Of a stretch of DNA of 64,000 nt, positions 4,036 to 59,210 are shown piece after piece. The translations under genes and the position numbers were made by a program. Where the stretch lies: positions 108,482 to 172,481 of the forward strand of contig JBNKCO010000060.1 in the NCBI GenBank assembly GCA_050287785.1. Direction: 5' to 3'. This DNA comes from Bacteroidales bacterium (GTDB lineage: Bacteria > Bacteroidota > Bacteroidia > Bacteroidales > UBA10428). Numbering within the stretch: position 1 is the stretch's first letter; every line of letters begins with the position of its first letter. Below the pieces are notes generated by a model, which made no database searches, had not been told where the DNA came from, and was given only the letters and a program-made list of their open reading frames with translations.

Positions 4036-5560
4036 AAACGCACACTTATTCTGCATTTTAGTATTATTGTTTTTACTAAATCTCACCTTGAAAAGTCAGG
4101 TAACAATAGATATACCTAAAATCAGGACTTTGCAATTAGATTCAACCATGGTCAAAATTGTATGGGAAAAATCAAAGCACCCTGGTGTTTTAGGCTACGA
4201 AATTAATGCTATAGGTTTTACTGGAAATAATCCAGAGCCCACTTTGGTTAGAGTTGATAGTGTTGGATCAGCACAAAGCTCATATGTGTCTGATGCAAAT
4301 ACTCTACCAGAATATGTCACTTCTCCATATAAAGAACCTTTAGCATTCGCAGTTTTGGCTGAGGATAATAAGGGCAATGAAAGCAAACTTGATGGACTAC
4401 CATGGGATAGCACTATTTTTCTTCAGGCTAGCTTTGATACTTGTCTGGCTAAGGTAAACCTGAATTGGACCCCTTACGATTTTAACATGTGGACTTACGG
4501 TACAAAGCATTATGTTATAATGATTCAGGAAAATAACGGACCTTTTACTGTTTATGATAGAGTGAATCAATCAATAACAAATTACCAGATAAATGATTTG
4601 TTGGCAAATAATATTTATAATTTTTATATTGGAGCAGTGGCTGACACAACCCGACCCGATACTTCAACTTCAAATATAGTTGAGATAAATACAGGAATGG
4701 CCAGGTTACCAGAATATATTCATGCTGATTACGCAACATATTCAGGCGGAAATGCCAAAGTTTCATTTTCAATTGATCCCATGAGCGAAATCAACACTTT
4801 TGAATTGTTACGGAGCACTTCCTTTACAGGTCAATATTCTGAAATAATGCAGCTTCAATCTCAAGGCAATAAAGTTGTACATTCAGATGCAATTAATTAT
4901 AATGATGGTCCCTATTTTTATAAGCTTGATGCAATTAATTTTTGCGATGAAAATATAAGAACCTCAGAAAATACTGCATCAACCATACTGCTTGAAGTAG
5001 GAGGGGAACCAATGGCTCCAGAGCTTAATTGGAGTGAGTATCAAAATTGGATTAATGGAGTTTCTTATTACCAGATTGACAGGAGGGTTGGAGATGAGGA
5101 ATATTCTATGCTTACTACATTAAATGAGACACTATTTACTGATAATACAATTGAGCAAAGAGTTGAGACAGGAATGGCTGCAAGAGTTTGTTATAAGGTA
5201 AGTGCTTTTGAGAATAATAATCCATATGGAACCAATGCCGTTAGTGATGCAAATGAAGTATGTATTGAGCTTCCTGTTAATATGAGATTTGAATACGACG
5301 CCTTTATGCCAGGGCATCCTGCAGGTAATAATACATTTGGACCAGCAATGGATTTTCTTCCAGATGAAATTGATTTTAGCATTGTGGACAGGAGCGGACA
5401 AGTGGTTTTTAATTCTACCGATCCTGATAATTTATTTTGGGACGGAACTTATAATGGAAACTATGTAACACAGGGTGCATACATGTATGTTGTTAAATAT
5501 CGGGTTGGACACGGCAAAAGAAAAACCTTGCGAGGTGGATTAGTAGTTGCTTACCCATAA
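3998..5560 (+). CDS. Secreted repeat protein with T9SS type B (gliding-motility CHU_C) C-terminal sorting domain
   Basis: The C-terminus FMPGHPAGNNTFGP...IVDRSGQVVFNS...WDGTYNG..VTQGAYMYVVKY...RGGLVVAYP matches the type B T9SS CTD pattern. The track start at 3980 is TTG. The ATG at 3998 gives the signal-like peptide MGIKKSLLGLQVKNAHLFCILVLLFLLN. The exact start is uncertain because it overlaps the upstream gene. Confidence 0.75.
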   Translation: MGIKKSLLGLQVKNAHLFCILVLLFLLNLTLKSQVTIDIPKIRTLQLDSTMVKIVWEKSKHPGVLGYEINAIGFTGNNPEPTLVRVDSVGSAQSSYVSDANTLPEYVTSPYKEPLAFAVLAEDNKGNESKLDGLPWDSTIFLQASFDTCLAKVNLNWTPYDFNMWTYGTKHYVIMIQENNGPFTVYDRVNQSITNYQINDLLANNIYNFYIGAVADTTRPDTSTSNIVEINTGMARLPEYIHADYATYSGGNAKVSFSIDPMSEINTFELLRSTSFTGQYSEIMQLQSQGNKVVHSDAINYNDGPYFYKLDAINFCDENIRTSENTASTILLEVGGEPMAPELNWSEYQNWINGVSYYQIDRRVGDEEYSMLTTLNETLFTDNTIEQRVETGMAARVCYKVSAFENNNPYGTNAVSDANEVCIELPVNMRFEYDAFMPGHPAGNNTFGPAMDFLPDEIDFSIVDRSGQVVFNSTDPDNLFWDGTYNGNYVTQGAYMYVVKYRVGHGKRKTLRGGLVVAYP

Positions 5561-5675
5561 ATAAAATCGCTAAATTTTATTTAAACTTAACTCAGTTGAA
5601 ATATTACATACATCTTTGAGCAAAGTTTTTCTATTTTTGTATTCTTCGTGCAAAGGTGCGGTATAAATTCGCTGT

Positions 5676-7913
5676 ATGGTTGATATTCAGGAAAAAGAAG
5701 AAAAGCAAATAAAGAATGACTTTAAAAGAATGCTTCAAGATTGCACGCGGTGTTCTCCTGAAGGGAAGAAGCTTATAGAAAAAGCTTTTAAAGTTGCTTT
5801 CGAGGCGCATAAAGGAATGCGGAGAAAGTCAGGGGAACCATATATAATTCACCCACTGGCAGTTGCTCGAATTGTCAATCAGGAAATTGGTTTGGGAGCA
5901 AAGGCTGTTTCTTGTGCTCTTTTGCATGATGTTGTAGAAGATACTCATTATTCTCTTGATGATATTGAACGAATGTTCGGCGAAAAAATATCATCCATTA
6001 TCGATGGTTTAACGAAAATATCAGGGGTTTTTGATAACGAAAGTTCGCTTCAGGCTGAGAATTTTCGTAAGATGCTTTTAACATTGTCTGATGATGTGCG
6101 GGTTATTCTTATTAAAATTGCTGATAGGTTGCATAATATGCGCACGCTAAGTAGTCTGCCTGCGCATAAGCAAATAAAAATTGCAAGTGAAACAATTTAT
6201 CTGTATGCTCCTCTTGCACACCGTCTGGGTTTATATTCAATAAAGACCGAACTTGAAGATTTAAGTTTAAAACACAGATTTCCAAAAATTTATGATGAGC
6301 TTTTCGAAAAACTTCAGAAGAATGAGGCGGAAAGATTGGCATTTCTTGAAGAATTTAAGCAACCTATTGAATCCAGACTTTCGTCATACGGATTAAATTA
6401 TGAAATTTCCGGGCGGCATAAATCAGTATATTCCATATGGCAGAAAATGCAAAATAAGAATGTGCCATTTGAAGAGGTATTCGATTTAATGGCTATTCGA
6501 GTTGTTTTTGATCCCGATGATAAGTTGCCAGAGAAAACTCAATGCTGGAATATTTATTCTCTAATTACCGATATCTATATGCCAAAACCCGAACGTATAC
6601 GCGATTGGGTAAGTACTCCAAAGGCAAATGGTTACGAGGCGCTCCATGCAACAGTTATGGGTCCTAAGGGAAACTGGGTTGAAGTACAGATACGCTCAAG
6701 GCGAATGGATGACATAGCGGAACGTGGATTTGCTGCTCATTGGAAATATAAACAAGAGACTGATCAAGAGTCGGAAATTGATAAATGGATTAAACAAATT
6801 AGAACTCTTCTTGAAGATCCAAATTCTGATGCCTTAGAATTTCTCGATGACTTTAAACTTAACCTGTTTGCTTCAGAAATATTTATTTTCACCCCTAAGG
6901 GAGAAATTAAAACCTTACCTGTTGGAGTAAATGCCCTGGATTTTGCATATGACATTCACACACAAATCGGACATAAGGCAATAGGAGCTAAAGTAAATCA
7001 TAAGCTTGTTGCCCTTCATCACTTATTAAGAAGTGGCGATCAAGTGGAAATAATTACTTCTGATATGCCACAATCAAGAATAGAGTGGATATCTAAAGTA
7101 AATACTGCAAAAGCTAAATCTTCAATTAAAGCATTTTTAAAGGCTGAGACAAAAAACCGAATTTCAAAAGGAAAGAAAATTCTGGAAGAAAAACTTGAAG
7201 AACTTAAACTGAAACCAAACCACCGAATATTCCGAAAGCTACTTCCTAATTACAATGTAACTTCAAAAGACGAACTGTATTCTAAAATATCAGTAGGCCT
7301 GATTAACCTTAAAGACCTTAAAAAGGTTCTGAAAAAGAATACTAAAAATAAATGGATAAGGTATTGGGGATTACAGTTTGGGGCAAAATCTGAAGGAGAG
7401 AAAGAAGAAACTCTCGTTCCTGAGTCACAACTATCCAGATCAAAAAAAGAGCCTGTTTATTTGCGTGAAACATCCGCAGTGGGAGATTTAAATTATGCAA
7501 TTGCTAAATGTTGTAACCCTATTCCAGGAGATACGGTTGTGGGTTTTGCCGATGAACATAACAAAATTGTAATTCATAAAAGTAGTTGTCCTAATGCAGT
7601 TAAAACATCAGCAAGCTTCGGGAATCGAATAGCAAATGTTAAATGGACAACACATAAACTTTACTCATTTCTTGTCAAAATTTCACTTGCAGGAGCAGAC
7701 CGATTTGGTATCTATAACGATATTACTCATGTAATTACAAAGCAGTTAAATGTTAACATGCGTAATGTAAATCTGCATAGTCACGACGGTATCTGGGAAG
7801 GTACAATAGAATTGTATGTTCATGATATTAAAGATTTAAATAACCTGATGATGAATTTAGGTAAAATCAAGGGACTTGATACTGTTAAACGTGTCGAGAA
7901 GCTTAAAGAATAG
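5676..7913 (+). CDS. spoT: Bifunctional (p)ppGpp synthetase/hydrolase (RelA/SpoT homologue)
   Basis: 745 aa. It has an HD hydrolase motif (HPLAVA..LLHDVVEDT), a synthetase core (RDWVSTPKANGYEALH), and TGS and ACT-like C-terminal regions. Confidence 0.95.
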   Translation: MVDIQEKEEKQIKNDFKRMLQDCTRCSPEGKKLIEKAFKVAFEAHKGMRRKSGEPYIIHPLAVARIVNQEIGLGAKAVSCALLHDVVEDTHYSLDDIERMFGEKISSIIDGLTKISGVFDNESSLQAENFRKMLLTLSDDVRVILIKIADRLHNMRTLSSLPAHKQIKIASETIYLYAPLAHRLGLYSIKTELEDLSLKHRFPKIYDELFEKLQKNEAERLAFLEEFKQPIESRLSSYGLNYEISGRHKSVYSIWQKMQNKNVPFEEVFDLMAIRVVFDPDDKLPEKTQCWNIYSLITDIYMPKPERIRDWVSTPKANGYEALHATVMGPKGNWVEVQIRSRRMDDIAERGFAAHWKYKQETDQESEIDKWIKQIRTLLEDPNSDALEFLDDFKLNLFASEIFIFTPKGEIKTLPVGVNALDFAYDIHTQIGHKAIGAKVNHKLVALHHLLRSGDQVEIITSDMPQSRIEWISKVNTAKAKSSIKAFLKAETKNRISKGKKILEEKLEELKLKPNHRIFRKLLPNYNVTSKDELYSKISVGLINLKDLKKVLKKNTKNKWIRYWGLQFGAKSEGEKEETLVPESQLSRSKKEPVYLRETSAVGDLNYAIAKCCNPIPGDTVVGFADEHNKIVIHKSSCPNAVKTSASFGNRIANVKWTTHKLYSFLVKISLAGADRFGIYNDITHVITKQLNVNMRNVNLHSHDGIWEGTIELYVHDIKDLNNLMMNLGKIKGLDTVKRVEKLKE

Positions 7914-43303: not shown

Positions 43304-45658
43304 CTAAAATTCTATTTTATAGCTTACGCTTGGAAATATAATTCTCAATTTTTCTTCAATTACTTCTCCTTTTTTGTAATCATATAAATATCCGTAATGC
43401 TCTTCTCTTCCTAGTAAGTTTAAAACCTGTATTGACCAAATACTTGCATGTTTTCTTTTATTAATGCGATAATTTATAGTAGTATTAACACGGTAAACAT
43501 TCGGAGATTGAACAGTAAAAGGTTGAGAGTAATCATACAAAACTTCATCTCCTTTTTGATACGGATAATCGTTGATTACAGGAGCTTCCCACCGGCCTCC
43601 ATACAAATTAAGCCTACCGCTGACACTTAATATTTTATTTTTATTTGCACCAAGTATCCATTCTTTACCAAATAAAAGATTAAATACAAAATGATTATTA
43701 TACCTGGTATTACGTTCGATATTATCACCACCTACATATTTTGATTCAAACAATGAAGTGGTAAATAAATAATAATATCCATTCTCCAGGAAACGTTCCA
43801 ATGTTATATCAATACCATAATTTGTTCCTGTACCTTTATTTGTTAATTTCTCGGTAAAAAACCAGTCAGTTTCAAGATTTATGGTTGAATAACTACTATC
43901 CGGGATTACCGGCACATCACATAAATACTGATAATAAGGTTCAATTTTTAATCTTAAATAAGGATTAAAACTAATATCGTATGAAAATACAATATGATGT
44001 GCTTTTGTTGTTCTTAATTCCTTATTTGGATTTGTAACTTCATTGTTTTCCAAAACTTCCGAGAAATAAATATATAAGGGTTCAAGGCGGCTATGCTTAC
44101 CGTAAGCAACGCTTACCGATTGTTTATTGGAGATATTGTATGTTAGTCCCATTCTTGGTTCAAAAACAAACTCTTTATTAAAATCCAGGTACAGACTATG
44201 GAAGCCCATATTTAAAGTAAAGCTTTGATTCAGGTTAAAGTGTGATTGTGAAAAAAAGTTATAGTTCATCGTAGATACTTTCTTATCCACCACTGTTTGA
44301 AGTTCGTCTCCTATTTGAGAGGTATATTTCAGACATAAGTCGTTATTCAGATTATTAACGATGAAGCCTGTCCGGTTTGAATGTTTTGCATTGAATTTAT
44401 GATTAAGTACCGACGTGAAGGTTACTTTATAATTCGTATTATCAATATGATGAATTTTATATGGGGTCAAATTATAATCCACATAACTTTTGTCCCAGCG
44501 TATATAATCACTTGTTATTGCAGCCGAAGAATGAAGATATGTTTTTTTTCCAACTACATACTTGTGGTTTAAACCAGCCGCACCTATCCGGAATACTGCA
44601 TTTGATAGTTCCTGGTCGACTGCATTACTCCATTCTATAGTGTCATTGTCAACATTAAAATCCAATTTATCATCAGAGGCCAGTCCCCAAAAAGAAAAAA
44701 TACCTGCCTTTTTTGTAGGGATATTAATTTTCATATTAAGATCCTGATATATTGGAATTTCATAATCGGGCAACACGTGTTGTACAAGGGCAAAGGTTGA
44801 ATAGCGGTAATTGAAAAGATAAGAAGCCCCTGAATTCTTTTTTAATGGTCCTTCGGACGAAAAATCAATACCCAGTGTCCCAATCTGAAAGGCATGTTCA
44901 TAATTTTCATTGTTGCCGGTTCGAAGCTTTAGGTCAAATACACCAGACATGGCATTTCCATATTCAGCAGGGTATGCTCCAGTGAAAAAATCGGAATTTG
45001 ACAACATCAAGTTGCTAATGGCACATATTGAACCACCTCCTGCAGCAATAAACCCGGCAAAATGATTAGGATTTGAAATTTCTATGCCCTCTAACCTCCA
45101 AAGCAGGCCTTTTGGGGCATTACCCCTGATAACTATTCCGTTGTCATTTAAATCACCAGTAGTAATTCCTGCAAAAGAAGAAGCTAAACGTGAAGGGTCG
45201 TCTAATCCCCCGGCATACCGTTGAGTTTCTTCAACTGAAAAGGTGCGGGCGCTTAGGGTCGACATATTGTTTATTGGTTTATCTTTTTTTGTAAAAGCTT
45301 TCACAACAACTTCTTCCATTTTAGAAATTTTTTCTTTCATCTTAATTGTTAATACTGTCTCTTTACCAGTTGAAACCATGAGTTCAGGTATTATAACAGT
45401 TTCATAACCTAAAAATGAAACTTGAATATTGTGCCTGCCAACAGGTATTTGTTCTAATCTAAAATTACCTTCTGTATCTGACATTGTTCCTATCATTGGT
45501 TCGGATGTAATATCCGCAATAGTAGCATAAGCGATTGGAGTCTGAGTTTCAGCATCAACAACTTTCCCACGAACTACTTGTGTCAATTCTTGTGCATTTG
45601 AAATAATATTTACCGTAAAAAATACTAATATGACTAAAAATATTTTTTGTATTTTCAT
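43304..45658 (-). CDS. TonB-dependent receptor-like outer-membrane protein (CarboxypepD_reg + plug + barrel)
   Basis: 784 aa with a signal peptide, the CarboxypepD_reg segment VRGKVVDAETQTPIAYATI, the plug segment FSVEETQRYAGGLDDPSRLASSFAG..IRGN and the terminal SYKIEF. It is a clear paralogue of residues 285-1067 of the 48558 ORF. Confidence 0.88.
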   Translation of the reverse strand: MKIQKIFLVILVFFTVNIISNAQELTQVVRGKVVDAETQTPIAYATIADITSEPMIGTMSDTEGNFRLEQIPVGRHNIQVSFLGYETVIIPELMVSTGKETVLTIKMKEKISKMEEVVVKAFTKKDKPINNMSTLSARTFSVEETQRYAGGLDDPSRLASSFAGITTGDLNDNGIVIRGNAPKGLLWRLEGIEISNPNHFAGFIAAGGGSICAISNLMLSNSDFFTGAYPAEYGNAMSGVFDLKLRTGNNENYEHAFQIGTLGIDFSSEGPLKKNSGASYLFNYRYSTFALVQHVLPDYEIPIYQDLNMKINIPTKKAGIFSFWGLASDDKLDFNVDNDTIEWSNAVDQELSNAVFRIGAAGLNHKYVVGKKTYLHSSAAITSDYIRWDKSYVDYNLTPYKIHHIDNTNYKVTFTSVLNHKFNAKHSNRTGFIVNNLNNDLCLKYTSQIGDELQTVVDKKVSTMNYNFFSQSHFNLNQSFTLNMGFHSLYLDFNKEFVFEPRMGLTYNISNKQSVSVAYGKHSRLEPLYIYFSEVLENNEVTNPNKELRTTKAHHIVFSYDISFNPYLRLKIEPYYQYLCDVPVIPDSSYSTINLETDWFFTEKLTNKGTGTNYGIDITLERFLENGYYYLFTTSLFESKYVGGDNIERNTRYNNHFVFNLLFGKEWILGANKNKILSVSGRLNLYGGRWEAPVINDYPYQKGDEVLYDYSQPFTVQSPNVYRVNTTINYRINKRKHASIWSIQVLNLLGREEHYGYLYDYKKGEVIEEKLRIIFPSVSYKIEF

Positions 45659-47253: not shown

Positions 47254-48369
47254 ATGATTTTTGTATTAAATATTGGTATAGTACTATCTTTCTTTTTAGG
47301 TATCCTTTTATTTTCTAAAAAGGACAAAGTCCTCACCGATAATATTTTATCGGTTTGGTTGGTTACTATTGGTATTCATTTAACAGGCTATTTTTTAAAT
47401 TACAAAGGGTATTGGGAAATTTATCCGCACCTAATTGGAATAACTGCACCTATTCCATTTTTATACGGCCCATTTTTGTACCTCTATGTTTTGTATTCGA
47501 TAAAAAATAAAACCCACTTGCTGAAAACAGATTATTTGCACTTTGCACCTGCATTGATCTCTTATTTGTACATGATACCATTTTATTTTTTTTATTCAGC
47601 TGATGAAAAAGTCCAGGTTGACAAAGGTTTGAGTAATGATTATAGTGTTTTTTCTGTTATTATGCTCATTGGCTTTATGTTGTCGGGAATAAGCTACTCG
47701 GTTTTGGCTTACCGAAAACTTGTACTACGTGAAAAAGTGGTGGAAGAAAATTTCTCAAACAGTAACCGCATTAATATGCGTTGGCTACGTTATGCCATTC
47801 TTGGCATTGCCTCCGTTTTTATTACTGCTGCTGTAGTTACTGTTTTGCGCGAAGTGCTTGATTTTCAGTTTCCATTTAATGCCGATATTTTGTTTTATTC
47901 TCTAATTGTAAGCTTTGTGGTTTATGTTGGTTATTCGGGTATACGACAACAGGATTTGTTTTCGAATGCAGACATAAGCGATGAGGAATTGGTGAAAACA
48001 GAAAGTGAGTATAAAAAATCGAGTTTGAAATTGGATAGGGCCACAAAGAAACACAATGAATTGGTAGCGTTGATGGAAAAGGAAAAACCTTATTTAAATC
48101 CCAGGTTAACATTGATTGAATTGGCCAAAAGCCTAAGCCTATCGCCCAATCATTTGTCACAAATAATTAATCAATACGAGCAGGTTAACTTTCACGACTT
48201 TGTAAATAAATACCGGGTAGAGGAATTTATTCAGCGGGTGCAAAGCAATAAAGACTTCAGTTTATTGGCCCATGCCTTTGACTCCGGATTTAATTCGAAA
48301 ACGACCTTTAACAGCGTTTTTAAAAAAATCAAATCAGTAACCCCTTCTCAATATTTTGCTGGTTTATAG
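47254..48369 (+). CDS. Membrane-embedded AraC-family transcriptional regulator
   Basis: 371 aa. The N-terminal ~230 aa form 6-7 hydrophobic helices. The C-terminal region is an AraC-type double HTH (LTLIELAKSLSLSPNHLSQIIN...GFNSKTTFNSVFKK). Confidence 0.88.
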   Translation: MIFVLNIGIVLSFFLGILLFSKKDKVLTDNILSVWLVTIGIHLTGYFLNYKGYWEIYPHLIGITAPIPFLYGPFLYLYVLYSIKNKTHLLKTDYLHFAPALISYLYMIPFYFFYSADEKVQVDKGLSNDYSVFSVIMLIGFMLSGISYSVLAYRKLVLREKVVEENFSNSNRINMRWLRYAILGIASVFITAAVVTVLREVLDFQFPFNADILFYSLIVSFVVYVGYSGIRQQDLFSNADISDEELVKTESEYKKSSLKLDRATKKHNELVALMEKEKPYLNPRLTLIELAKSLSLSPNHLSQIINQYEQVNFHDFVNKYRVEEFIQRVQSNKDFSLLAHAFDSGFNSKTTFNSVFKKIKSVTPSQYFAGL

Positions 48370-48494: not shown

Positions 48495-48516
48495 AGGGCG
48501 ATGCGCCCTTGTTTTT
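48495..48516 (+). terminator. Compact intrinsic terminator between the AraC gene and the CPBP ORF
   Basis: The stem AGGGCG pairs with CGCCCT around the loop ATG, followed by TGTTTTTG. It ends 42 nt upstream of the 48558 ATG. Confidence 0.55.
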
Positions 48517-48557
48517 GATGAATATTTGCATCGGAAACAATTAATAAACGAGAAAGA

Positions 48558-51500
48558 ATGAACATCAACATTTACAAAAAAACAGGATTGTTCTATGGTT
48601 TAGCAACGCTTATACCATGGACATTATGGTTTATTGCGGGTTACATCAGCCACATTGAAACCGAAAGTTCAATACCACAATTGTGGGCTAGTGTTATAGC
48701 ATTTTTGGGCTTACTGGCCCCGGTCCTTATCACCGTTTTTCTAGCCAGGGGCAATAAGATGTTAACTCATGATTTTAAAAGTCGAATCTTTAATTTTAAA
48801 GGGGTTGATTCAACTTATTTTCTACTAACATTTGTTCTAATGCCATTTAGTATTTTAACGGCGCAAGCAGTATCCCTTTTGTTTGGCTACAGTATGGATC
48901 AATTTCAATTGGCTGAATCTTTTTCTTTTACATCGGGTGTTTTTCCAGTATGGTTTATGCTAATTATTGCTCCTTTATTGGAAGAGTTGGCATGGCATTC
49001 TTATGGCACCGATTCTTTACGTTCGCGATACAATCTGTTCACAACCTCAATGCTTTTTGCCTTATACTGGGGTATTTGGCATATTCCCTTGTCCGGCATC
49101 AATAATTATTACCATAGCAATTTAGTTGAAGAGGGTTGGATATATTCTCTGAATTTCATACTAAGCCTTTTCCCTTTTGTAATTATCATGAACTGGATTT
49201 ATTACAAAGCCAACCGCAATATTATATTACCTATTGTTTTTCACATTGCCGCAGGTTATTTCAATGAAATATTTGCCACACATCCTATGAGTAAAGTGAT
49301 ACAAACCGGCTTATTAATAGTGTTTTCACTTTATATTATTCTAAACGATAAAGAGTTCTTTTTTTCAAAAGAACTAAAAAATGAAAGTAGAAAAAACAAA
49401 TCTGTTAGGATGAGTAAAAGCCTCAACTTCGGAGTTCTGTTTTTATTTCTAAGTATTTTTTTATTCGGATCTTCAAACGAATTATCGGCTCAGGAAGTTA
49501 CCCAAACTATTAAGGGAAAAGTCTTTGACGAAATGACCAATGAAACCTTACCCTTTGCTACAATTGTAGTAAAAGATAGCGATCCATTAATTGGAGTTGT
49601 TTCTGATTTAGATGGAAATTTTGTTTTGCAAAATATAAAAGTAGGACGCCAAAGCCTCTCAATTTCTGTAATGGGTTACTCTACGTATGAAGTTAAAGAA
49701 TTGTTGGTTAGCTCAGGGCAGATCATAGATCTGAATATAGGAATGCAGCAAAGCAGTTCTGAACTAGCCGAAGTAGTAGTTCGCGTAAGCAAAACTTCAC
49801 CACTCAACAGCATGGCCATGCTAAGCAGCCGTCAATTTACGGTTGAGGAAACACAGCGTTATGCTGGTGGTATGGACGATCCTGCACGATTGGTTTCATC
49901 ATTTGCAGGGGTAGCAAATCCCTCAATCAGCGATAACGGCATTTCTGTTCGGGGAAATAACCCTGACGGACTTTTATGGCGCATCGATGGTGTTGAAGTG
50001 CCTAATCCAAACCACTTTGCCAATTTAACCATTGCCGGTGGAGGTTTAATGTCTGCCATTAGTAGCCAAATGATGGGTAATAGTGACTTTTATACCGGTG
50101 CTTTTCCGGCAGAATTCGGAAATGCTTCATCGGGAGTATTCGATATAAAACTACGTGAAGGCAACAATGATAAGCGACAATACGCTTTTGAAGCAGGTAT
50201 ATTAGGTGTAGGTGCCATGGCGCAAGGTCCTTTTAGCAAAAAAACGGATGCTTCATATATTATCAATTACCGCAATTCAACCATGGCGCTTATTGCACCT
50301 CTACTTCCTGATGATGCTGGCGTTTTGAGGTATCAAGACCTCTCGTTTAAAACAAACTTGCCAACAAAAAACATGGGAACATTCACCCTTTGGGGAATTG
50401 GAACATTTGACGGCGTAAACATGAATGCAATTGACAGTATTGATTGGAAATCGAATTTTGACCGTGATAATTCCAAAACTTCCATGTATATGTTTGCAAC
50501 TGCGTTATCACATAAACTCATTTTACCGGGTAATGCTTTTCTAAAAACGACGGTTTCCAGCACAGGCAGTGGATTAAAATTTAAAGAAGAACGTTTGGAC
50601 TATACCTTGCAAGCGCATCCACAATCGAAAGCAGAAAATAACACAAGCCGAATTACAATTCAAAGCGAAGTTACCAAACGCTTTAACGAAAAGCACAGCA
50701 ATAAAACGGGTGTTCGTTATAGCTATCTTGCCTTCGATGTTGATGTTGAACAAGCACTAGCAGAGGGAGCATCTCCTCAACAAATTGCCAGTCAAACGGG
50801 CCAAACCGGATTTGTTCAGTTTTATTCGCAATCGAAAATTGAATTGATGCCTCAACTTTCACTAAATGCAGGCATCAATACCCAATACCTATTGTTGAAT
50901 GATAATTTTTCGATTGAACCTCGTGTTGCATTAAAATACAACATCAACAATAAGCAAAGTATAGCGTTGGCCTATGGTATTCATAGCCGAATAGAGCAAT
51001 TGCCTGTATATTTTGTTTCTGGCAATGGTAGCACACCAAACAGAAGCCTTGATTTCATGAAATCGTCGCACTATGTGCTTTCGTATAGTGCAAAACTTGC
51101 CGACAACTTGCATTTGAGTGTTGAACCTTATTATCAACAATTAAAAGATGTTCCGGTAGGCCTTGATAGCTATATTTCAACCTTGAACAATAACAACACT
51201 CTTTTCTTCAACGAAGTGCTTGTGAGTGAAGGTTCTGGACGAAATATAGGTATTGACCTTACGCTGGAAAAATTTCTGAGCCGAGGCTATTATTATATGG
51301 CAACCGCTTCAGTTTTCGACTCAAAATATACAGCTGCTGATGGTATAGCGCGAAATACCCGATTTAATAAAAACTATGTTTTCAATTTAATGCTGGGAAA
51401 AGAATGGCAAACAATTAAAGATAACATTATTAGCGCCAACATAAAGCTAAACTATTTGGGTGGTAGCCGCATTGAACCTATTGATGATGAAGCTTCAACG

Positions 51501-51761
51501 CAACAAGCTAGTATTGTTTATGGTGAAACTAATGGTGAGTTGGCGTTCAGCAAAAGTCATGATGCAATACCCGTGGTATCGTTTACACTATCCTATCGAA
51601 AAAACAAACCAAAATATTCTTCCGTATGGTCGCTTCAAGTGCTAAATGCCACAGGAAGCAAAGAATACTCAAACGATTTTTACAATATAAAAACAAACAA
51701 AATTGATTCTAAATATGATGGACTGATGATTCCAAATATCAGTTATAAAATTGAATTTTAA
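48558..51761 (+). CDS. Continuous ORF: CPBP (CAAX/Abi) intramembrane protease (aa 1-284) in frame with a TonB-dependent receptor-like protein (aa 285-1067)
   Basis: The N-terminal part carries the CPBP motifs PLLEELAWHSYG, YWGIWHIP and FHIAAGYFNE. The internal ATG at 49410 opens a full signal peptide (MSKSLNFGVLFLFLSIFLFGSSNELSAQE). This is followed by CarboxypepD_reg, plug and barrel, ending in SYKIEF. No stop codon separates the two parts. Confidence 0.8.
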   Translation: MNINIYKKTGLFYGLATLIPWTLWFIAGYISHIETESSIPQLWASVIAFLGLLAPVLITVFLARGNKMLTHDFKSRIFNFKGVDSTYFLLTFVLMPFSILTAQAVSLLFGYSMDQFQLAESFSFTSGVFPVWFMLIIAPLLEELAWHSYGTDSLRSRYNLFTTSMLFALYWGIWHIPLSGINNYYHSNLVEEGWIYSLNFILSLFPFVIIMNWIYYKANRNIILPIVFHIAAGYFNEIFATHPMSKVIQTGLLIVFSLYIILNDKEFFFSKELKNESRKNKSVRMSKSLNFGVLFLFLSIFLFGSSNELSAQEVTQTIKGKVFDEMTNETLPFATIVVKDSDPLIGVVSDLDGNFVLQNIKVGRQSLSISVMGYSTYEVKELLVSSGQIIDLNIGMQQSSSELAEVVVRVSKTSPLNSMAMLSSRQFTVEETQRYAGGMDDPARLVSSFAGVANPSISDNGISVRGNNPDGLLWRIDGVEVPNPNHFANLTIAGGGLMSAISSQMMGNSDFYTGAFPAEFGNASSGVFDIKLREGNNDKRQYAFEAGILGVGAMAQGPFSKKTDASYIINYRNSTMALIAPLLPDDAGVLRYQDLSFKTNLPTKNMGTFTLWGIGTFDGVNMNAIDSIDWKSNFDRDNSKTSMYMFATALSHKLILPGNAFLKTTVSSTGSGLKFKEERLDYTLQAHPQSKAENNTSRITIQSEVTKRFNEKHSNKTGVRYSYLAFDVDVEQALAEGASPQQIASQTGQTGFVQFYSQSKIELMPQLSLNAGINTQYLLLNDNFSIEPRVALKYNINNKQSIALAYGIHSRIEQLPVYFVSGNGSTPNRSLDFMKSSHYVLSYSAKLADNLHLSVEPYYQQLKDVPVGLDSYISTLNNNNTLFFNEVLVSEGSGRNIGIDLTLEKFLSRGYYYMATASVFDSKYTAADGIARNTRFNKNYVFNLMLGKEWQTIKDNIISANIKLNYLGGSRIEPIDDEASTQQASIVYGETNGELAFSKSHDAIPVVSFTLSYRKNKPKYSSVWSLQVLNATGSKEYSNDFYNIKTNKIDSKYDGLMIPNISYKIEF

Positions 51762-51831: not shown

Positions 51832-52650
51832 ATGAAACGAATGTACATTTTCCTGTCAATCCTAATGATGAGTACTAGTCTAATCAAGGCACAGGAAGTA
51901 AAATCAAATTCCTTTGGAATAAACCTGGGAATGGGAAACCTGAAAAAGCAGGATCTTATTTTTAGTCCTTTTATAATAAGGGACTGGTCTCCATTGAATA
52001 TTCTCCTGGATTATGAACATACCGGGAAAGTTGATCAAAAAGTAAGCCTACGCTTTGGACAATCTTCCTATTATGTGGGTGAACCCTATTCCTATTTTCA
52101 CAGGGGTGAAAAGACCGAGAAATGGCCGCACAGCACCAGTAACATCGATCTGAATTATTCGCTAACAAAAAGCATTCTGCAGAACAATAATTGGAAGTTA
52201 TCCGCAGGAGGAAGATACAGGAACCGCTTTCAGCTTACAAACTATGATTTTGGAAATGCCGGACAATTTTCTTATAATCTTTCCTATGGCTTAGATGCCT
52301 TACTAAATATTGAATATAAGTCGGGCAAACATAGCTTTGATTCAGAATTTGCTCTTCCGATTTTCTCTGCCCTGGCAAGGTCTCCCTATACTAGTCAGGA
52401 CGACGCATACATGGAGCGGATAATGGTACATGGAGATTTGAAAATTTTTGTTGAACATTTGAAATCTGCTACTTACGAATCATGGGGTAAATCTCAAATG
52501 GTAGATTTTGATGTAAGCTATAAATACGCACTCAGCGAAAAATGGGATATAGGAATGACTTACCTATTTGTAATGAATCTTCACAATACTCCAGTTCAAT
52601 ATACAAGTATCGAAAATGTAATTTATTTAGGAACAACTATTAAATTTTAA
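51832..52650 (+). CDS. Putative outer-membrane beta-barrel protein (unknown family)
   Basis: 272 aa with a signal peptide (..LIKAQE), an alternating beta-strand pattern and a C-terminal aromatic residue (TTIKF). Confidence 0.6.
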   Translation: MKRMYIFLSILMMSTSLIKAQEVKSNSFGINLGMGNLKKQDLIFSPFIIRDWSPLNILLDYEHTGKVDQKVSLRFGQSSYYVGEPYSYFHRGEKTEKWPHSTSNIDLNYSLTKSILQNNNWKLSAGGRYRNRFQLTNYDFGNAGQFSYNLSYGLDALLNIEYKSGKHSFDSEFALPIFSALARSPYTSQDDAYMERIMVHGDLKIFVEHLKSATYESWGKSQMVDFDVSYKYALSEKWDIGMTYLFVMNLHNTPVQYTSIENVIYLGTTIKF

Positions 52651-52654
52651 AACG

Positions 52655-53677
52655 ATGAAAACATTATATATAATAATAAGCTTATCCATAGTAATGATGC
52701 TTACAAGCTGCGAAAAAACATATTTCGAAGCTGAACCAGAGAATAATCCTGAAGCACTGTTTGAAAACTTTTGGAACACATTTAACGACGACTATGCAAG
52801 TTTCCAAGTAAAAGGAATTAACTGGCAGCAAGTGTATAACGAATACAGACCTCAGGTAAGTTCTGAAACCACCGATGAAGAACTTACCGAGATATTATAT
52901 CAGTTAATCAGAGTATTAGATGATGGTCATGTCTCTCTGACCGTTCCAGGAAAAGAAATTTACTATTCGAACAGGATTTATGGTGAAGAGATTGGTAGTG
53001 AACTTTTCGATCTTGAACTGATAAAAACCAAGTACATGAATAACGAATATACGGAGAGTGGACATACCTTTAATAACTATGGTTGGATAGGGAATATGGG
53101 CTACCTCCATATTGAGGCATTTGCTGATAATATATTGGAAATGAATGATATACTAGACTATTTTAAATCAGCAGAAGGCTTAGTTTTCGACCTTAGAGCC
53201 AATATTGGTGGAGACTTCACCTATGCAATGACAGAGTTTACCAGGCTAACTAATGAGGAACGACTCATTTTCAGTTCACGCACCAAAACAGGCAAGGGTG
53301 TTGAGGATTACACCGATTGGTATGACTGGAAACTAAAGCCTGCTGGACCGTACTTTGATAAACCCATTGTACTGCTAACAGATCGCCTTACGATAAGTGC
53401 CGGTGAACGGGCCACAATGATTCTGAAAGCATTGCCTAATGTTACCCACATGGGAGATACAACCAACGGTGCTGCTGCTACTAAAATTGGTAAAGAACTG
53501 GCCAACGGATGGGATTATTCACTCGTTTCACAACAACTTAAATTTCGTGACGGGATTGACTATGAAGGCACGGGATTGCCACCTGATATCTATATAAAAA
53601 ATACAGAAGAAGAGATTGCGAATGGTCAGGATAAAGTACTAGAGGCTGCACTGGACATATTAACGCAAAATCCTTAA
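52655..53677 (+). CDS. S41-family serine peptidase lipoprotein
   Basis: 340 aa with a lipobox (MLTSC). The segments DLRANIGG and LTDRLTISAGERATMILK are typical of the S41 (tail-specific/IRBP-like) catalytic core. Confidence 0.8.
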   Translation: MKTLYIIISLSIVMMLTSCEKTYFEAEPENNPEALFENFWNTFNDDYASFQVKGINWQQVYNEYRPQVSSETTDEELTEILYQLIRVLDDGHVSLTVPGKEIYYSNRIYGEEIGSELFDLELIKTKYMNNEYTESGHTFNNYGWIGNMGYLHIEAFADNILEMNDILDYFKSAEGLVFDLRANIGGDFTYAMTEFTRLTNEERLIFSSRTKTGKGVEDYTDWYDWKLKPAGPYFDKPIVLLTDRLTISAGERATMILKALPNVTHMGDTTNGAAATKIGKELANGWDYSLVSQQLKFRDGIDYEGTGLPPDIYIKNTEEEIANGQDKVLEAALDILTQNP

Positions 53678-55905: not shown

Positions 55906-56514
55906 ATGAAAAATATTAAATTACCATTCGTCGCAATACTAATCGCAAGCGTATTACTTTCAAGTTGCTCTGACAATTATGACCGCATTTCAGGTGAAGG
56001 CCCTATTGTATCAAAAACTCTTCAGATCAATCCCTTCACCAAAATTAGCATGCAGGGAGTTGATGATGTTTACATCACATACGGAACAGAGCAATCCGTT
56101 AGGGTAGAGGGACAAGCAAATATCATTTCAAGAATCAAAACCAGAGTAGTTAACGGCACTTGGTATATTGAATTAGAGGATGGCAATTACCGTGATTATG
56201 ACTTGACATACTATCTGCAAGTTCCAGTTATTGAAGGTGTTCAAAGCGATGGTACTGGAGATGTAATCATATCAGATCCATTGCAGGCGGATGATATTTC
56301 CATCAGGTTGGTTGGTACAGGTAGTTTCTTAGGATTCCTTTTATCAGCTGATGAATGCAACATTGATATCATCGGTGCCGGTATTTGTGAAATAACAGTA
56401 AACAATGCCTTAGATGTAAAAATTGAAGGAACAGGAAGTGTCTATTACAAAGGATCTCCACAGGTTAACACAGATATTGAAGGAACAGGTAAAGTAACTT
56501 CTGTAAAGGATTAA
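55906..56514 (+). CDS. DUF2807 / GIN-domain (adhesin-head-like) lipoprotein
   Basis: 202 aa with a lipobox (LLSSC). The repeated G(T/A)G(D/S)V/I beta-helix-like units are typical of DUF2807. Confidence 0.65.
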   Translation: MKNIKLPFVAILIASVLLSSCSDNYDRISGEGPIVSKTLQINPFTKISMQGVDDVYITYGTEQSVRVEGQANIISRIKTRVVNGTWYIELEDGNYRDYDLTYYLQVPVIEGVQSDGTGDVIISDPLQADDISIRLVGTGSFLGFLLSADECNIDIIGAGICEITVNNALDVKIEGTGSVYYKGSPQVNTDIEGTGKVTSVKD

Positions 56515-56723: not shown

Positions 56724-59210
56724 ATGAAAACAGAGAAAACAATCAGACCTACTGAAAACACTTTCAGAAAAACAGGAACACATTTTTTCAAATTGTTTCT
56801 ACTGTCTTCGCTCTTAGCAATTTTTTCTACCAATACAATGAGAGCTGAGAATACGGAGATCCAAAAAGGAAGCATTGCCGGGAAAATAACAGATAAGGCT
56901 TCGAATACGGCATTGCAATATGCTACAGTAGCCTTATACTCTTCCGATGATTCATCTCTTATAGATGGAACCATTACAGATGAGGAAGGCCTTTTCAGCC
57001 TTGAAAATATTCCTTCCGGCAATTATTATCTGGTGGCGGAATACCTTGGGTATGAAAGGCAGGTCCGGGATGATATACAGATCAGTGACGATCAATATTA
57101 CGTTGAAATCAATGATATTCAACTGACAGAAGGAAGTACAGATTTGGATGAACTTACTGTTGTTGGGCAAAGAAGGACCCAGATAATTAAGGCAGACAGA
57201 AAGGTTATAAACGTAGATAAGAATCTATCAGCACAGGGAGGAACAGCTATCGATGCGCTGAAAATATCTCCTTCAATTACAGTTAACCAAGATGGTGATG
57301 TATTACTCAGAGGAAGCTCAAGTTTTAAAGTACTTGTTGATGGTAAGCCAACAGCTTTAAAACCCAATGAGGTGCTCAAGCAAATGCCTGCGGGCCGAAT
57401 TGAGAGCATTGAGATTATTACCAACCCATCGGCCAAATACGATGCCGAAGGAACCGCAGGAATAATAAACATTATTACAAAAAAAGGATTGGGTGCCGGA
57501 CTTAATGGCCTTATCAATGCATCGGCCGGAACAGGTGACAAGTACAATGCCGACTTGAATGTGAATTATACCAACGACAAATTAAATGTTACCCTTGGTG
57601 CAAAATGGAAAGACGAGAATCAGTTCTATAATATGGATGAGTTGATACAAACAACTTTAGATGGCAAGAAACGAACCAATGACATCCTTTTCTACCGGAA
57701 TCAAGGCAATAATGATTTGGGTGCTAACATTACCCTTGATTATAATTTCAACGCAAAAAACACTATTTCTTATTCAGCGGATGCCGGTTATACTCATTTT
57801 TATGTTGACGCAAATTTTAAATACGATGAAACTATTGAAAGTCAAGCTGGACATAACTACGTTTATGAAGATTTAAGTACGGCTATTTTGGCTGACTATT
57901 TTACCAATAACTTGTCGCATACCTATAATTTTAATGAAAGCAGTTCTTGGACAAATTCCATTTTCTATTCGAAGATAAATTATTTATTTGATGTTGAGCA
58001 AGACAGGTATAACACAGGTTCTGATTTCAATAACAGTGGAGTTACACCATACTATTCCATGCAATTTGAAAATAGCAATTTTAGTGAAGAGATTCGGGCT
58101 AAATCGGATTACACGAAATCATTTGAAAACGGAACAAAATTAGAGTTAGGTGGTCAGTATCACAATTATCACAGATATTTGGACCTGCAAGCAGAAAATT
58201 TCAACTACAATGCGAATAACTGGGAAGTTGACACCGTATTTACTAATGAATTTGATTTTAATGAACGTATTTATTCGTCATATGCGAATCTAAGTGGAGA
58301 AAAGTTAGGCATTACCTACAGTGTTGGGTTGCGACTTGAATACAATAACCGCTTGATTGAAAGCTTTACCATTAATGAAAAATATGAATACCAAAAACTA
58401 AATTATTTCCCAACACTTTCCTTATCAAAAGAACTTGGAGAAACGAAGCAACTTGCCTTTAATTATTCACGACGCATTGATCGACCTGACGAATATTTCC
58501 TTAATCCTTTTCCAGATGTAAGCAATGAATTTCAAGAAGCATATGGGAATCCACTCTTGCGTCCAAATTTAACTGACTCTTATGAACTAGGTTTCCAAAA
58601 GCACTTTACAAAAGGTATGTTTAGCTCCCAGACATTTATGCGCAACACAAATGATGCTTATACACAGGTTATCGGGAGCAATGAGGACGGTATTATGATA
58701 CTAACTTTCGACAATATATCGGATGATAAGGAATTTGGTGTTGAAAATATGGTAAACCTGCAAGCCCTTAAGTGGTGGAGCTTAAATTCCAGTCTCACTG
58801 TTATGGGACAAAATTCAAAAGGAATTATGAATGACGAAGCTTATGACAGAAGTGCAATTACTTTCAACACTCGATTAATCAACTCATTTACATTAGGTAA
58901 AAACACAAGCGCCCAAGTAATGGCATTCTATTTCCATGATCAATTAGGAAATTCAATTGGAAATGTAGAACGTTTTTACTGGTTTGATGCTTCAGTAGAG
59001 CACAATTTCTTCAATGAGCATTTATCGGTAGGATTAACTGTAAAAGACATTTTCAATACCAACCAACTAAAATTTGATATAAATAGAAGTGATTATCGCT
59101 TTTATGTTCATCAGAAACCAGAATACCCAACAATACTGCTTAATGTAAGTTATAAGTTCAATAATTACAAAAACAATAGTAACACTGTAAAAACAAACCT
59201 AAAGATATAA
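56724..59210 (+). CDS. TonB-dependent receptor-like outer-membrane barrel (CarboxypepD_reg + OMP_b-brl_3 type)
   Basis: 828 aa with a signal peptide, the CarboxypepD_reg segment GSIAGKITDKASNTALQYATVALY, the plug-like GGTAIDALKISPSITVNQDGDVLLRGSS and a long barrel. Confidence 0.85.
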   Translation: MKTEKTIRPTENTFRKTGTHFFKLFLLSSLLAIFSTNTMRAENTEIQKGSIAGKITDKASNTALQYATVALYSSDDSSLIDGTITDEEGLFSLENIPSGNYYLVAEYLGYERQVRDDIQISDDQYYVEINDIQLTEGSTDLDELTVVGQRRTQIIKADRKVINVDKNLSAQGGTAIDALKISPSITVNQDGDVLLRGSSSFKVLVDGKPTALKPNEVLKQMPAGRIESIEIITNPSAKYDAEGTAGIINIITKKGLGAGLNGLINASAGTGDKYNADLNVNYTNDKLNVTLGAKWKDENQFYNMDELIQTTLDGKKRTNDILFYRNQGNNDLGANITLDYNFNAKNTISYSADAGYTHFYVDANFKYDETIESQAGHNYVYEDLSTAILADYFTNNLSHTYNFNESSSWTNSIFYSKINYLFDVEQDRYNTGSDFNNSGVTPYYSMQFENSNFSEEIRAKSDYTKSFENGTKLELGGQYHNYHRYLDLQAENFNYNANNWEVDTVFTNEFDFNERIYSSYANLSGEKLGITYSVGLRLEYNNRLIESFTINEKYEYQKLNYFPTLSLSKELGETKQLAFNYSRRIDRPDEYFLNPFPDVSNEFQEAYGNPLLRPNLTDSYELGFQKHFTKGMFSSQTFMRNTNDAYTQVIGSNEDGIMILTFDNISDDKEFGVENMVNLQALKWWSLNSSLTVMGQNSKGIMNDEAYDRSAITFNTRLINSFTLGKNTSAQVMAFYFHDQLGNSIGNVERFYWFDASVEHNFFNEHLSVGLTVKDIFNTNQLKFDINRSDYRFYVHQKPEYPTILLNVSYKFNNYKNNSNTVKTNLKI

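Follow-up and report, generated by a model that had tools for sequence, protein, structure and literature searches.

In a 64,000-nt stretch of contig JBNKCO010000060.1 from a Bacteroidales bacterium of the UBA10428 lineage (hereafter the window, in whose coordinates positions are given), a single open reading frame (ORF) at 48558..51761 (+) encodes a 1067-aa protein with two unlike halves. It comprises, in this order, a complete MmRce1-type CPBP module with eight transmembrane (TM) helices, a Sec-type signal segment and a full TonB-dependent transporter (TBDT, here also called the receptor), with no stop codon between the two parts. We propose, with a probability of roughly 0.7, that this fused ORF is a conserved natural polyprotein that signal peptidase I would cut into two proteins. 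An earlier reading of the DNA letters alone (the sequence-only reading) had noticed the stop-free, in-frame run from a CPBP protein into a complete receptor with its own signal peptide, which the ORF and its domain matches confirm; likewise, the ATG at 49410 is codon 285 (Met285), as that reading had placed it. As described below, the sequences strongly support a fusion that is both conserved and translated.

One reading frame joins a CPBP protease to an outer-membrane receptor

An AlphaFold2 (AF2) model of the fused protein, built from 87 sequences with a mean predicted local distance difference test score (pLDDT) of 74, contained eight helices (residues 9–263), a separate helix (285–305), a beta-sandwich (315–396) and a large barrel (541–1066). 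Together with the domain matches, this divides the ORF as follows.

48558..49373 (+), residues 1–272: MmRce1-type CPBP module with eight TM helices (Pfam, NCBIfam, 4CAD, AF2, Foldseek)
49374..49418 (+), residues 273–287, KELKNESRKNKSVRMSK: basic linker, equivalent to the n-region of the internal signal segment, predicted to be cytoplasmic; it holds the non-conserved ATG at 49410
49419..49490 (+), residues 288–311, SLNFGVLFLFLSIFLFGSSNELSA: hydrophobic core and c-region of the internal signal segment (AF2 helix 285–305, residue statistics)
49491..51761 (+), Q312 to F1067 plus the stop codon: predicted mature TBDT (Pfam, AF2, Foldseek, TonB-box conservation), consisting of the N-terminal Gln, CarbopepD_reg (318–408), a TonB-box-like motif (403–410), a putative plug (~420–535) and a Phe-ended beta-barrel (541–1067)

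In databases, such proteins go by one of two names, 'carboxypeptidase-like regulatory domain-containing protein' and 'CPBP family intramembrane metalloprotease', each of which conceals one half of the protein.

The first half is a full-length CPBP protein, as the sequence-only reading had claimed for residues 1–284. The NCBIfam CPBP_MmRce1 profile matched residues 6–272 (profile positions 6–270 of 271; 199 bits, under the 425-bit equivalog cut-off), phmmer aligned residues 4–271 with residues 3–269 of the 271-residue chain of Methanococcus maripaludis Rce1 (MmRce1, a glutamic intramembrane CAAX protease; PDB 4CAD; E=2.6e-50), and Foldseek superposed the N-terminal part on Rce1 with TM-scores of 0.89–0.91. 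The Pfam Rce1-like family (PF02517) matched residues 128–232, and the eight helices were modelled with a pLDDT of ~80–93. Two of the three motifs listed previously stood. In the EExxxH motif (142–147), the counterpart of the TM4 motif EExxxR that supplies the catalytic Glu in the Rce1 family, E142 and E143 were invariant in 81/81 sequences and His147 took the place of MmRce1 Arg145 in 80/81; the WxxWH motif lies at 171–175, and its H175, the equivalent of the catalytic H173 in TM5 of MmRce1, was again invariant (81/81). The HxxxN motif, which in the Rce1 family (as HxxxN/D on TM7) contributes the oxyanion hole, did not stand: H229, the equivalent of MmRce1 His227, is invariant, and the column of MmRce1 Asn231 is occupied here by Gly233 and across the family by Gly or Val. 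The invariant Asn is N236, three residues further on, so that the third motif reads H229-x6-N236 instead of a canonical HxxxN. The module thus resembles MmRce1 in its full-length homology, its eight TM helices and its retained equivalents of Glu-Glu, His173 and His227, and differs from it in the Arg145-to-His147 exchange, the displaced Asn, the sub-equivalog score and the attached receptor. The catalytic residues were intact in 53 of 54 fused proteins.

In the receptor half, Pfam recognized CarbopepD_reg at residues 318–408 and, below its 23.9-bit cut-off, Plug (E=0.0022, 18.9 bits); none of the Pfam barrel models matched this half of the fused protein. A sequence search of the receptor against solved structures also gave no match, which made a fold search necessary. 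Foldseek then matched the C-terminal part to FptA, BtuB, Fiu, BauA and Bacteroides thetaiotaomicron BtuB (E 1e-13 to 1e-9), and the modelled barrel (541–1066) had about 22–24 strands at a pLDDT of 75–92. Its C-terminal F1067 is invariant. The plug region (402–531) had a pLDDT below 50 in the model, yet it is the most conserved stretch of the sequence; at 403–410, the motif L(D/E)EVVV(R/K)V, which we take to be a Bacteroidota-type TonB box, was kept across the 87 sequences.

The window holds a stand-alone paralogue of this receptor:

43304..45658 (−): receptor paralogue of 784 aa with an independent start codon (BLASTP, Pfam CarbopepD_reg)

The paralogue is colinear with the fused receptor and 43% identical to it over 783 aa (BLASTP), in line with the length and colinearity described by the sequence-only reading; it needs correction only in that the gene lies on the minus strand. 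Both proteins begin their mature part in the same way (...A↓QE.TQ, the arrow marking the predicted cleavage site). A third receptor in the window, at 56724..59210 (+) (828 aa; CarbopepD_reg, Plug and OMP_b-brl_3), belongs to a different family. With Bacteroidota TBDTs that carry a carboxypeptidase-regulatory-like domain (SusC-like), the fused receptor shares the Gln at +1, the beta-sandwich, the DEVVV-type TonB box, a putative plug and the 22-strand-type barrel; unlike them, it has no adjoining SusD-like partner and forms the C-terminal part of an inner-membrane protein.

The fusion is conserved and appears to have arisen once

A search of 5.8 billion proteins returned, among the matches listed, ~66 distinct clusters of fused proteins with lengths of 1060–1093 aa, 100% query coverage and 57–100% identity. 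The isolate sources of these clusters include Draconibacterium sediminis, Sunxiuqinia, Saccharicrinis carchari and Pontibacter korlensis, next to many metagenomes, and complete chromosomes are among the genomes that carry the fusion. The nearest relatives are Prolixibacteraceae and Draconibacterium. We also scanned species-representative genomes with a profile of the CPBP part only, found relatives in 473 genomes and classified the best 80 loci.

Fused in frame: 11 loci (Prolixibacteraceae, Maribellus, Draconibacterium, Saprospiraceae, Bacteroidales, Ignavibacteriales, Melioribacter)
Two adjoining genes on the same strand, the CPBP gene ending in a stop codon: 26 loci
CPBP gene without a nearby receptor: 43 loci, of which at least 32 have at least 2.9 kb of downstream sequence

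The sequence-only reading had considered that orthologues might uniformly be encoded as two genes; the comparison gave both forms, and the fused one spans several Bacteroidota lineages and Ignavibacteriota.

All fused proteins formed one clade in a neighbour-joining tree of the receptor parts. Among 1.84 billion representatives at 50% clustering, the fused clade corresponds to a single representative, and the other 149 of the best 150 hits (of 16,498) were receptor-only, so that no independent fusion was found elsewhere in the receptor family among these best 150. Receptor hits of 850–890 aa had a normal signal peptide and an STN-like signalling domain, and no membrane enzyme. This single clade and single 50% representative indicate that the fusion has one origin and was retained afterwards. 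Mean column identity was 70%, which, together with the intact catalytic residues of 53/54 proteins, shows strong purifying selection on both halves.

The two-gene loci, which belong to more distant relatives, indicate how small the step to a fusion is. Their receptor ATG mostly lies between −4 nt (overlapping as ATGA) and +38 nt from the CPBP stop codon, and their receptor begins with MKK, followed by a hydrophobic core and (S/A)↓Q. At one locus (L055) both frames are identical and separated by one TAA, and at two others (L024, L043) two in-frame stops lie between them; one or two point mutations suffice to convert the two-gene form into the fused one. These operons resemble the fused genes in their CPBP (57–83% identity) and receptor (41–66%) sequences, in the shared strand, in the (S/A)↓Q end of the signal segment and, usually, in the same membrane AraC gene upstream. 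They differ in having a CPBP stop codon and a separate receptor ATG; in the fused clade, the stop is gone and the start mostly so. Their hosts are Flavobacteriaceae, some Saprospiraceae, Calditrichota, Marinimicrobia and KSB1 (loci including L002, L009, L010, L012, L013, L018–L020 and L023–L028).

Two observations concern the wider history of the module. At the locus of an uncultured Algibacter (L002, 5698–10170), the AraC and CPBP proteins are 77% and 83% identical to those of the window, and the receptor, a separate gene, is only 53% identical; these discordant values suggest receptor replacement or recombination within the module. CPBP orthologues with 57–62% identity and no receptor were found on contigs binned as Gammaproteobacteria, Rhodobacteraceae, Bacillota, Syntrophales, an anammox bacterium and Campylobacterales (L021, L032, L035, L042, L044, L049, L053, L058, L061, L073, L074, L080). 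Such a spread across phyla could be due to wide horizontal transfer or to mis-binning.

The junction is kept open and lacks a conserved internal start codon

The DNA between the two parts is stop-free in the frame of the fusion at 12/12 fused loci, with stop codons in the +1 frame at 12/12 and in the +2 frame at 8/12. Shuffled junctions were stop-free only 2–10% of the time, and the junction is exactly 117 nt long in 10/12 loci despite a nucleotide identity of 35–45%. The open junction is not due to chance.

Start codons within it are not conserved. The column of Met285 holds Ile in the closest relatives of the window's protein (88% and 81% identical), and a Met at any point after the CPBP part and before the hydrophobic core was present in 14/54 fused proteins, leaving 40/54 with none. 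At the DNA level, 5/12 junctions (L001, L007, L014, L015, L017) have no ATG, GTG or TTG ahead of the core, and one of these (L014) has none throughout. At L003–L006, the sole candidate is a TTG at the edge of the core; in-frame ATGs also occur at L011 and L016. Internal initiation is thus not supported as a general mechanism, given the unconserved Met285 and the five junctions with no usable start. Without a conserved internal start and with the frame kept open, the receptor must be translated from the CPBP start, at least in most members of the clade.

An out-of-frame ATG in AAAAATGAAAG opens a 10-codon mini-ORF (49385..49415, +), whose TGA overlaps the in-frame ATG at 49410 (GGATGA); it is probably a chance feature of this A-rich stretch. 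Rfam searches of the junction and of the conserved leader upstream of the gene gave chance-level matches only and no known RNA element.

The internal signal segment and its predicted orientation

Across the 54 fused proteins, the segment between the two halves looks like a signal peptide. Its n-region has a mean net charge of +3.5, and its uncharged core and c-region together average ~15.6 residues, which leaves ~10–13 residues for the core, too short for a stable TM anchor. Position −1 is Ala, Ser or Gly in 53/54, and position −3 is aliphatic or small (L/V/I/T/S/A/M) in 54/54. A Gln occupies position +1 (Q312) in 53/54 fused and in 33/33 stand-alone sequences, matching the Q-rule of Bacteroidota, according to which signal peptidase I substrates begin with a Gln that is then cyclised to pyroglutamate (PMC5837995, PMC10653852). 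These features predict a signal peptidase I cut after Ala311, between nt 49490 and 49491, and likewise a pyroglutamate N-terminus. Such a cut would yield a 311-residue CPBP protein with nine TM segments and a mature transporter of 756 residues.

Whether this segment could be exported depends on its orientation. In a hydropathy scan restricted to orthologues with all nine segments resolved, alternate loops differed sharply in Lys plus Arg content (18–21 vs 0–2), the basic side comprising the N-terminus, loops 2–3, 4–5 and 6–7, and the linker. Since basic loops are cytoplasmic according to the positive-inside rule, the N-terminus and the linker would be cytoplasmic, and the ninth segment would cross the membrane from inside to outside, as signal peptides do. 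The sequence-only reading had called the covalent fusion topologically awkward. This premise was wrong, because a module of eight TM helices whose two termini are cytoplasmic orients a following signal-like segment correctly. Furthermore, as the C-terminus of the CPBP module must be cytoplasmic in the fusion, its active site is placed towards the periplasm: given cytoplasmic termini, the helix register of the AF2 model assigns E142, H175, H229 and N236 to the half of the membrane that faces the periplasm. The deduced orientation is opposite to that drawn for MmRce1 in a review, with both termini on the lumenal (non-cytosolic) side of the endoplasmic reticulum and the cavity open to the cytosol (PMC12067869). 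The native orientation of prokaryotic Rce1 homologues may therefore need to be re-examined.

Four natural variants with a decayed CPBP half bear on both the reading frame and the topology.

P0072 (L084), 863 aa: the CPBP N-terminus (TM1, TM2 and the basic cytoplasmic loop) jumps in frame to the signal core (...VKA↓QNITQ); six TM helices are lost
P0076 (L083), 797 aa: the leader and the CPBP start (ATG-AAy) are kept and lead straight into linker, signal core and receptor, with none of the eight TM helices remaining
P0068 (L081, Pontibacter sp. 13R65), 971 aa: residues ~100–196 are gone; the loss takes in TM4 and TM5, portions of the neighbouring TM3 and TM6, and also the catalytic Glu-Glu and His
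P0066, 1062 aa: full-length scaffold with the catalytic residues lost (EE to YG, H147Y, H229Y)

The frame from the CPBP start into the receptor survives in all of them. P0068 is still in frame and has no Met before its signal core, and the ORF of P0076 sits ~181 nt after the AraC gene, the usual spacing. In L081 (4001–6916), L083 (1415–3808) and L084 (2235–4826), the receptor is intact and in frame behind a decaying CPBP part. The in-frame deletions in P0068, P0072 and P0076 removed or merged an even number of TM helices (2, 6 and 8), by which the linker stays on the cytoplasmic side. We had considered the short members of the clade as reversions to two genes and rejected this, as P0073 (L082) ends at a contig end and the other three are the deletions described here. 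At L084, a different Rce1-like gene encoding 287 aa follows the receptor (4844–5707).

Proposed processing and alternative explanations

In the polyprotein model, the stop codon between two tightly packed operon genes, for an MmRce1-type CPBP protein and a TBDT, would have been lost once. Translation would begin at the CPBP ATG at 48558, and the eight CPBP helices would insert so that the N-terminus and the basic linker at the C-terminal end remain in the cytoplasm. Segment 288–306 would then cross from inside to outside like a signal peptide, carrying the ~755-residue receptor over the inner membrane through Sec, and signal peptidase I would cut after Ala311, exposing Gln312 in a way that fits cyclisation under the Q-rule. 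The freed receptor would travel to the outer membrane, and the CPBP protein would stay in the inner membrane with its ninth helix. Among the options left by the sequence-only reading, cleavage at the internal signal peptide is the best supported, by the site statistics, the junction frame and the deletion variants; the absence of internal starts from many orthologues suggests that two mature products come from one translation product. Several points weigh against the model. The cutting itself, the responsible enzyme, the pyroglutamate N-terminus and the two products are inferred from sequence. The Gln at +1 is also invariant in relatives from phyla with no general Q-rule and may partly reflect a family-specific constraint. 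The MmRce1 orientation of PMC12067869, if applicable here, would put the receptor on the wrong side, and two deletion variants come from low-coverage metagenome contigs. Finally, the in-frame ATG at 49410 precedes the signal core in an A-rich context, which makes some independent initiation possible in this strain, and L003–L006 have their TTG at the edge of the core.

These start codons lead to the alternative that the receptor is made separately from an internal start and that the read-through fusion is a minor or irrelevant by-product of the lost stop. The ATG at 49410 is followed by SK, the hydrophobic core and SAQ, the linker Met of 14/54 proteins and the candidates at L011, L016 and L003–L006 could serve elsewhere, and the two-gene ancestors used a start of this kind. 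Against it stand the 40/54 proteins with no linker Met, the five junctions with no start before the core, the absence of Met285 from the two closest relatives, the maintained frame and 117-nt length, and the deletion variants, which retain the CPBP start in frame with the receptor. We therefore regard it as unlikely; internal initiation at 49410, as put forward by the sequence-only reading, is not supported as a family mechanism and may be an extra route in this particular strain, which has the ATG.

Two further alternatives, both of which we consider highly improbable, accept the fused product and dispute its processing. If the protein stayed uncleaved, its ninth helix would anchor the receptor N-terminus in the inner membrane, with the barrel in the outer membrane, giving one envelope-spanning polypeptide; as cleavage is deduced, such a product is conceivable, and the beta-sandwich, followed by a TonB-box linker of ~30 residues, might in principle span the periplasm in part. 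The short core, the small-x-small site and the Gln at +1 are, however, exactly those of the paralogue and of the stand-alone orthologues, which are necessarily cleaved; no more than ~6 residues lie between the segment and the folded sandwich domain, and the TonB box is kept in the family. Self-processing, in which the CPBP protease would cut the junction in cis in place of signal peptidase I, draws on the catalytic residues, which by helix register lie in the periplasmic half of the membrane near the exit of the junction, and on bacterial CPBP proteins that can cut beside TM segments, such as myxosortase (PMC11980579). It is contradicted by P0066, P0068, P0072 and P0076, which have lost catalytic residues or the whole catalytic region and preserve both the frame of the fusion and its signal site, so that protease activity is not needed in cis; moreover, the site fits the rules for signal peptidase I, and the same site serves in two-gene relatives, whose receptor is not covalently joined to a CPBP protein. 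A sequencing or assembly artefact, or a recent, strain-specific stop loss in an incipient pseudogene, had only prior expectation in its favour. The sequence-only reading had allowed for this, and it is refuted by the ~66 listed clusters and the 11 fused species genomes: the identical architecture recurs, at identities as low as 57%, in dozens of isolate genomes and metagenome assemblies that are independent of one another, with purifying selection on both halves. We give it practically no weight.

Gene neighbourhood and possible function

Two features precede the fused gene in the window.

47254..48369 (+): membrane-anchored AraC-family regulator of 371 aa, with an N-terminal polytopic region and a C-terminal helix-turn-helix domain (Pfam HTH_18, 290–368)
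48495..48557 (+): conserved leader/promoter region, with GGGCGATGCGCC ~61 nt and AATATTTGCATC ~36 nt upstream of the ATG

The regulator has at least five hydrophobic segments. Immediately upstream of the CPBP gene and in the same orientation, a full-length homologue was present in 10/11 of the fused, 24/26 of the two-gene and 18/43 of the CPBP-only loci (52/80), and the membrane AraC-type regulator is thus a conserved third partner of the CPBP/receptor pair. Its presence at 18 receptor-less loci suggests that regulator and CPBP protein together may form the module's core. Several gammaproteobacterial CPBP loci have a weaker AraC homologue downstream instead of upstream. The leader elements, which lie within 48495..48532, keep constant positions in 8/11 of the fused and 11/26 of the two-gene loci and are retained in the variants L083 and L084; they may represent a Bacteroidota-type promoter plus operator. 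GGGCGATGCGCC was also flagged as a terminator-like hairpin (48495..48509). Scans for sigma-70 promoters and terminators were uninformative (15 found vs 13.2 expected), the sigma-70 promoter type not being that of Bacteroidota.

A DUF2807 (GIN-domain) protein is encoded at 55906..56514 (+) in the window. Homologues lie just downstream of the receptor in eight loci (for example L002:10388–11026 and L003:10238–10891) and just upstream of it in L084 (1373–2098); this protein may be a fourth, loosely linked partner. The region directly after the fused gene (51832..53677, +) encodes a 272-aa signal-peptide protein with no family match and an S41/Tricorn_C1 peptidase lipoprotein. Both were considered as members of the system and rejected, since no homologue was present in any of the 80 loci, and they are probably unrelated neighbours.

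The sequence-only reading had expected protease and receptor to be functionally tied, and the conserved adjacency of the two genes in ~26 relatives supports this. With its active site predicted in the periplasmic half of the membrane, the CPBP protein might, as a speculation, act on something that the transporter brings into the periplasm. A scheme of import, processing and sensing is our most economical guess at the function. In this tentative picture, which we hold to be less likely than not, the AraC sensor-regulator, the Rce1-type protease and the TBDT would form a previously undescribed envelope-spanning module: the transporter would import a hydrophobic or lipidated peptide-like compound, the protease, facing the periplasm and thus opposite to eukaryotic Rce1, would process it, and the regulator would sense the substrate or product. 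The polyprotein would enforce 1:1 synthesis, and the fusion would be a natural probe of the topology of bacterial Rce1-like enzymes.

Relation to known systems and implications

Normally, an outer-membrane barrel is synthesized as a precursor of its own, headed by a signal peptide. In this case, an entire clade produces the barrel at the C-terminal end of a polytopic inner-membrane protein, an arrangement for which we found no published description; a literature search gave no paper on a CPBP-TBDT fusion, on a CPBP/TBDT/AraC module or on an inner-membrane/outer-membrane polyprotein. The closest mechanistic precedent known to us would be the cytochrome b-c1 polyprotein FbcH of Bradyrhizobium japonicum, whose internal signal sequence is reportedly cut by signal peptidase to give two mature proteins. 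FbcH likewise has, in a single gene, a polytopic inner-membrane protein joined by a cytoplasmic loop to an internal signal sequence, behind which a second protein is exported, and a corresponding orientation of the fused protein is suggested by the positive-inside rule and the deletion variants. The two differ in the fate of the second product: the freed cytochrome c1 is said to stay membrane-anchored, facing the periplasm in the same complex, whereas the barrel described here would cross the periplasm and be inserted by BAM.

For the protease half, the nearest comparison is the myxosortase MrtX, a CPBP protein of Myxococcus xanthus that removes the C-terminal MYXO-CTERM tag from many substrates, acts on periplasm-exposed envelope proteins and is tied to outer-membrane and surface sorting (PMC11980579). 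Both are bacterial Rce1-like CPBP proteins, and a periplasmic-half active site, as predicted here, fits the periplasmic-side action of myxosortase, the only bacterial Rce1-like enzyme with a defined role (PMC11980579). The myxosortase system, in contrast, has no fusion or operon link to a TBDT, and the system of the fused protein has no MYXO-CTERM tag.

The roles of prokaryotic Rce1/CPBP proteases are largely unexplored (PMC11980579), and the fusion, together with its conserved three-gene neighbourhood, provides a concrete functional lead for them. It would also imply co-translational targeting of an outer-membrane protein to the inner membrane, followed by signal peptidase cleavage at an internal site, and would thereby offer a natural test case for how flexible the biogenesis of outer-membrane proteins may be.

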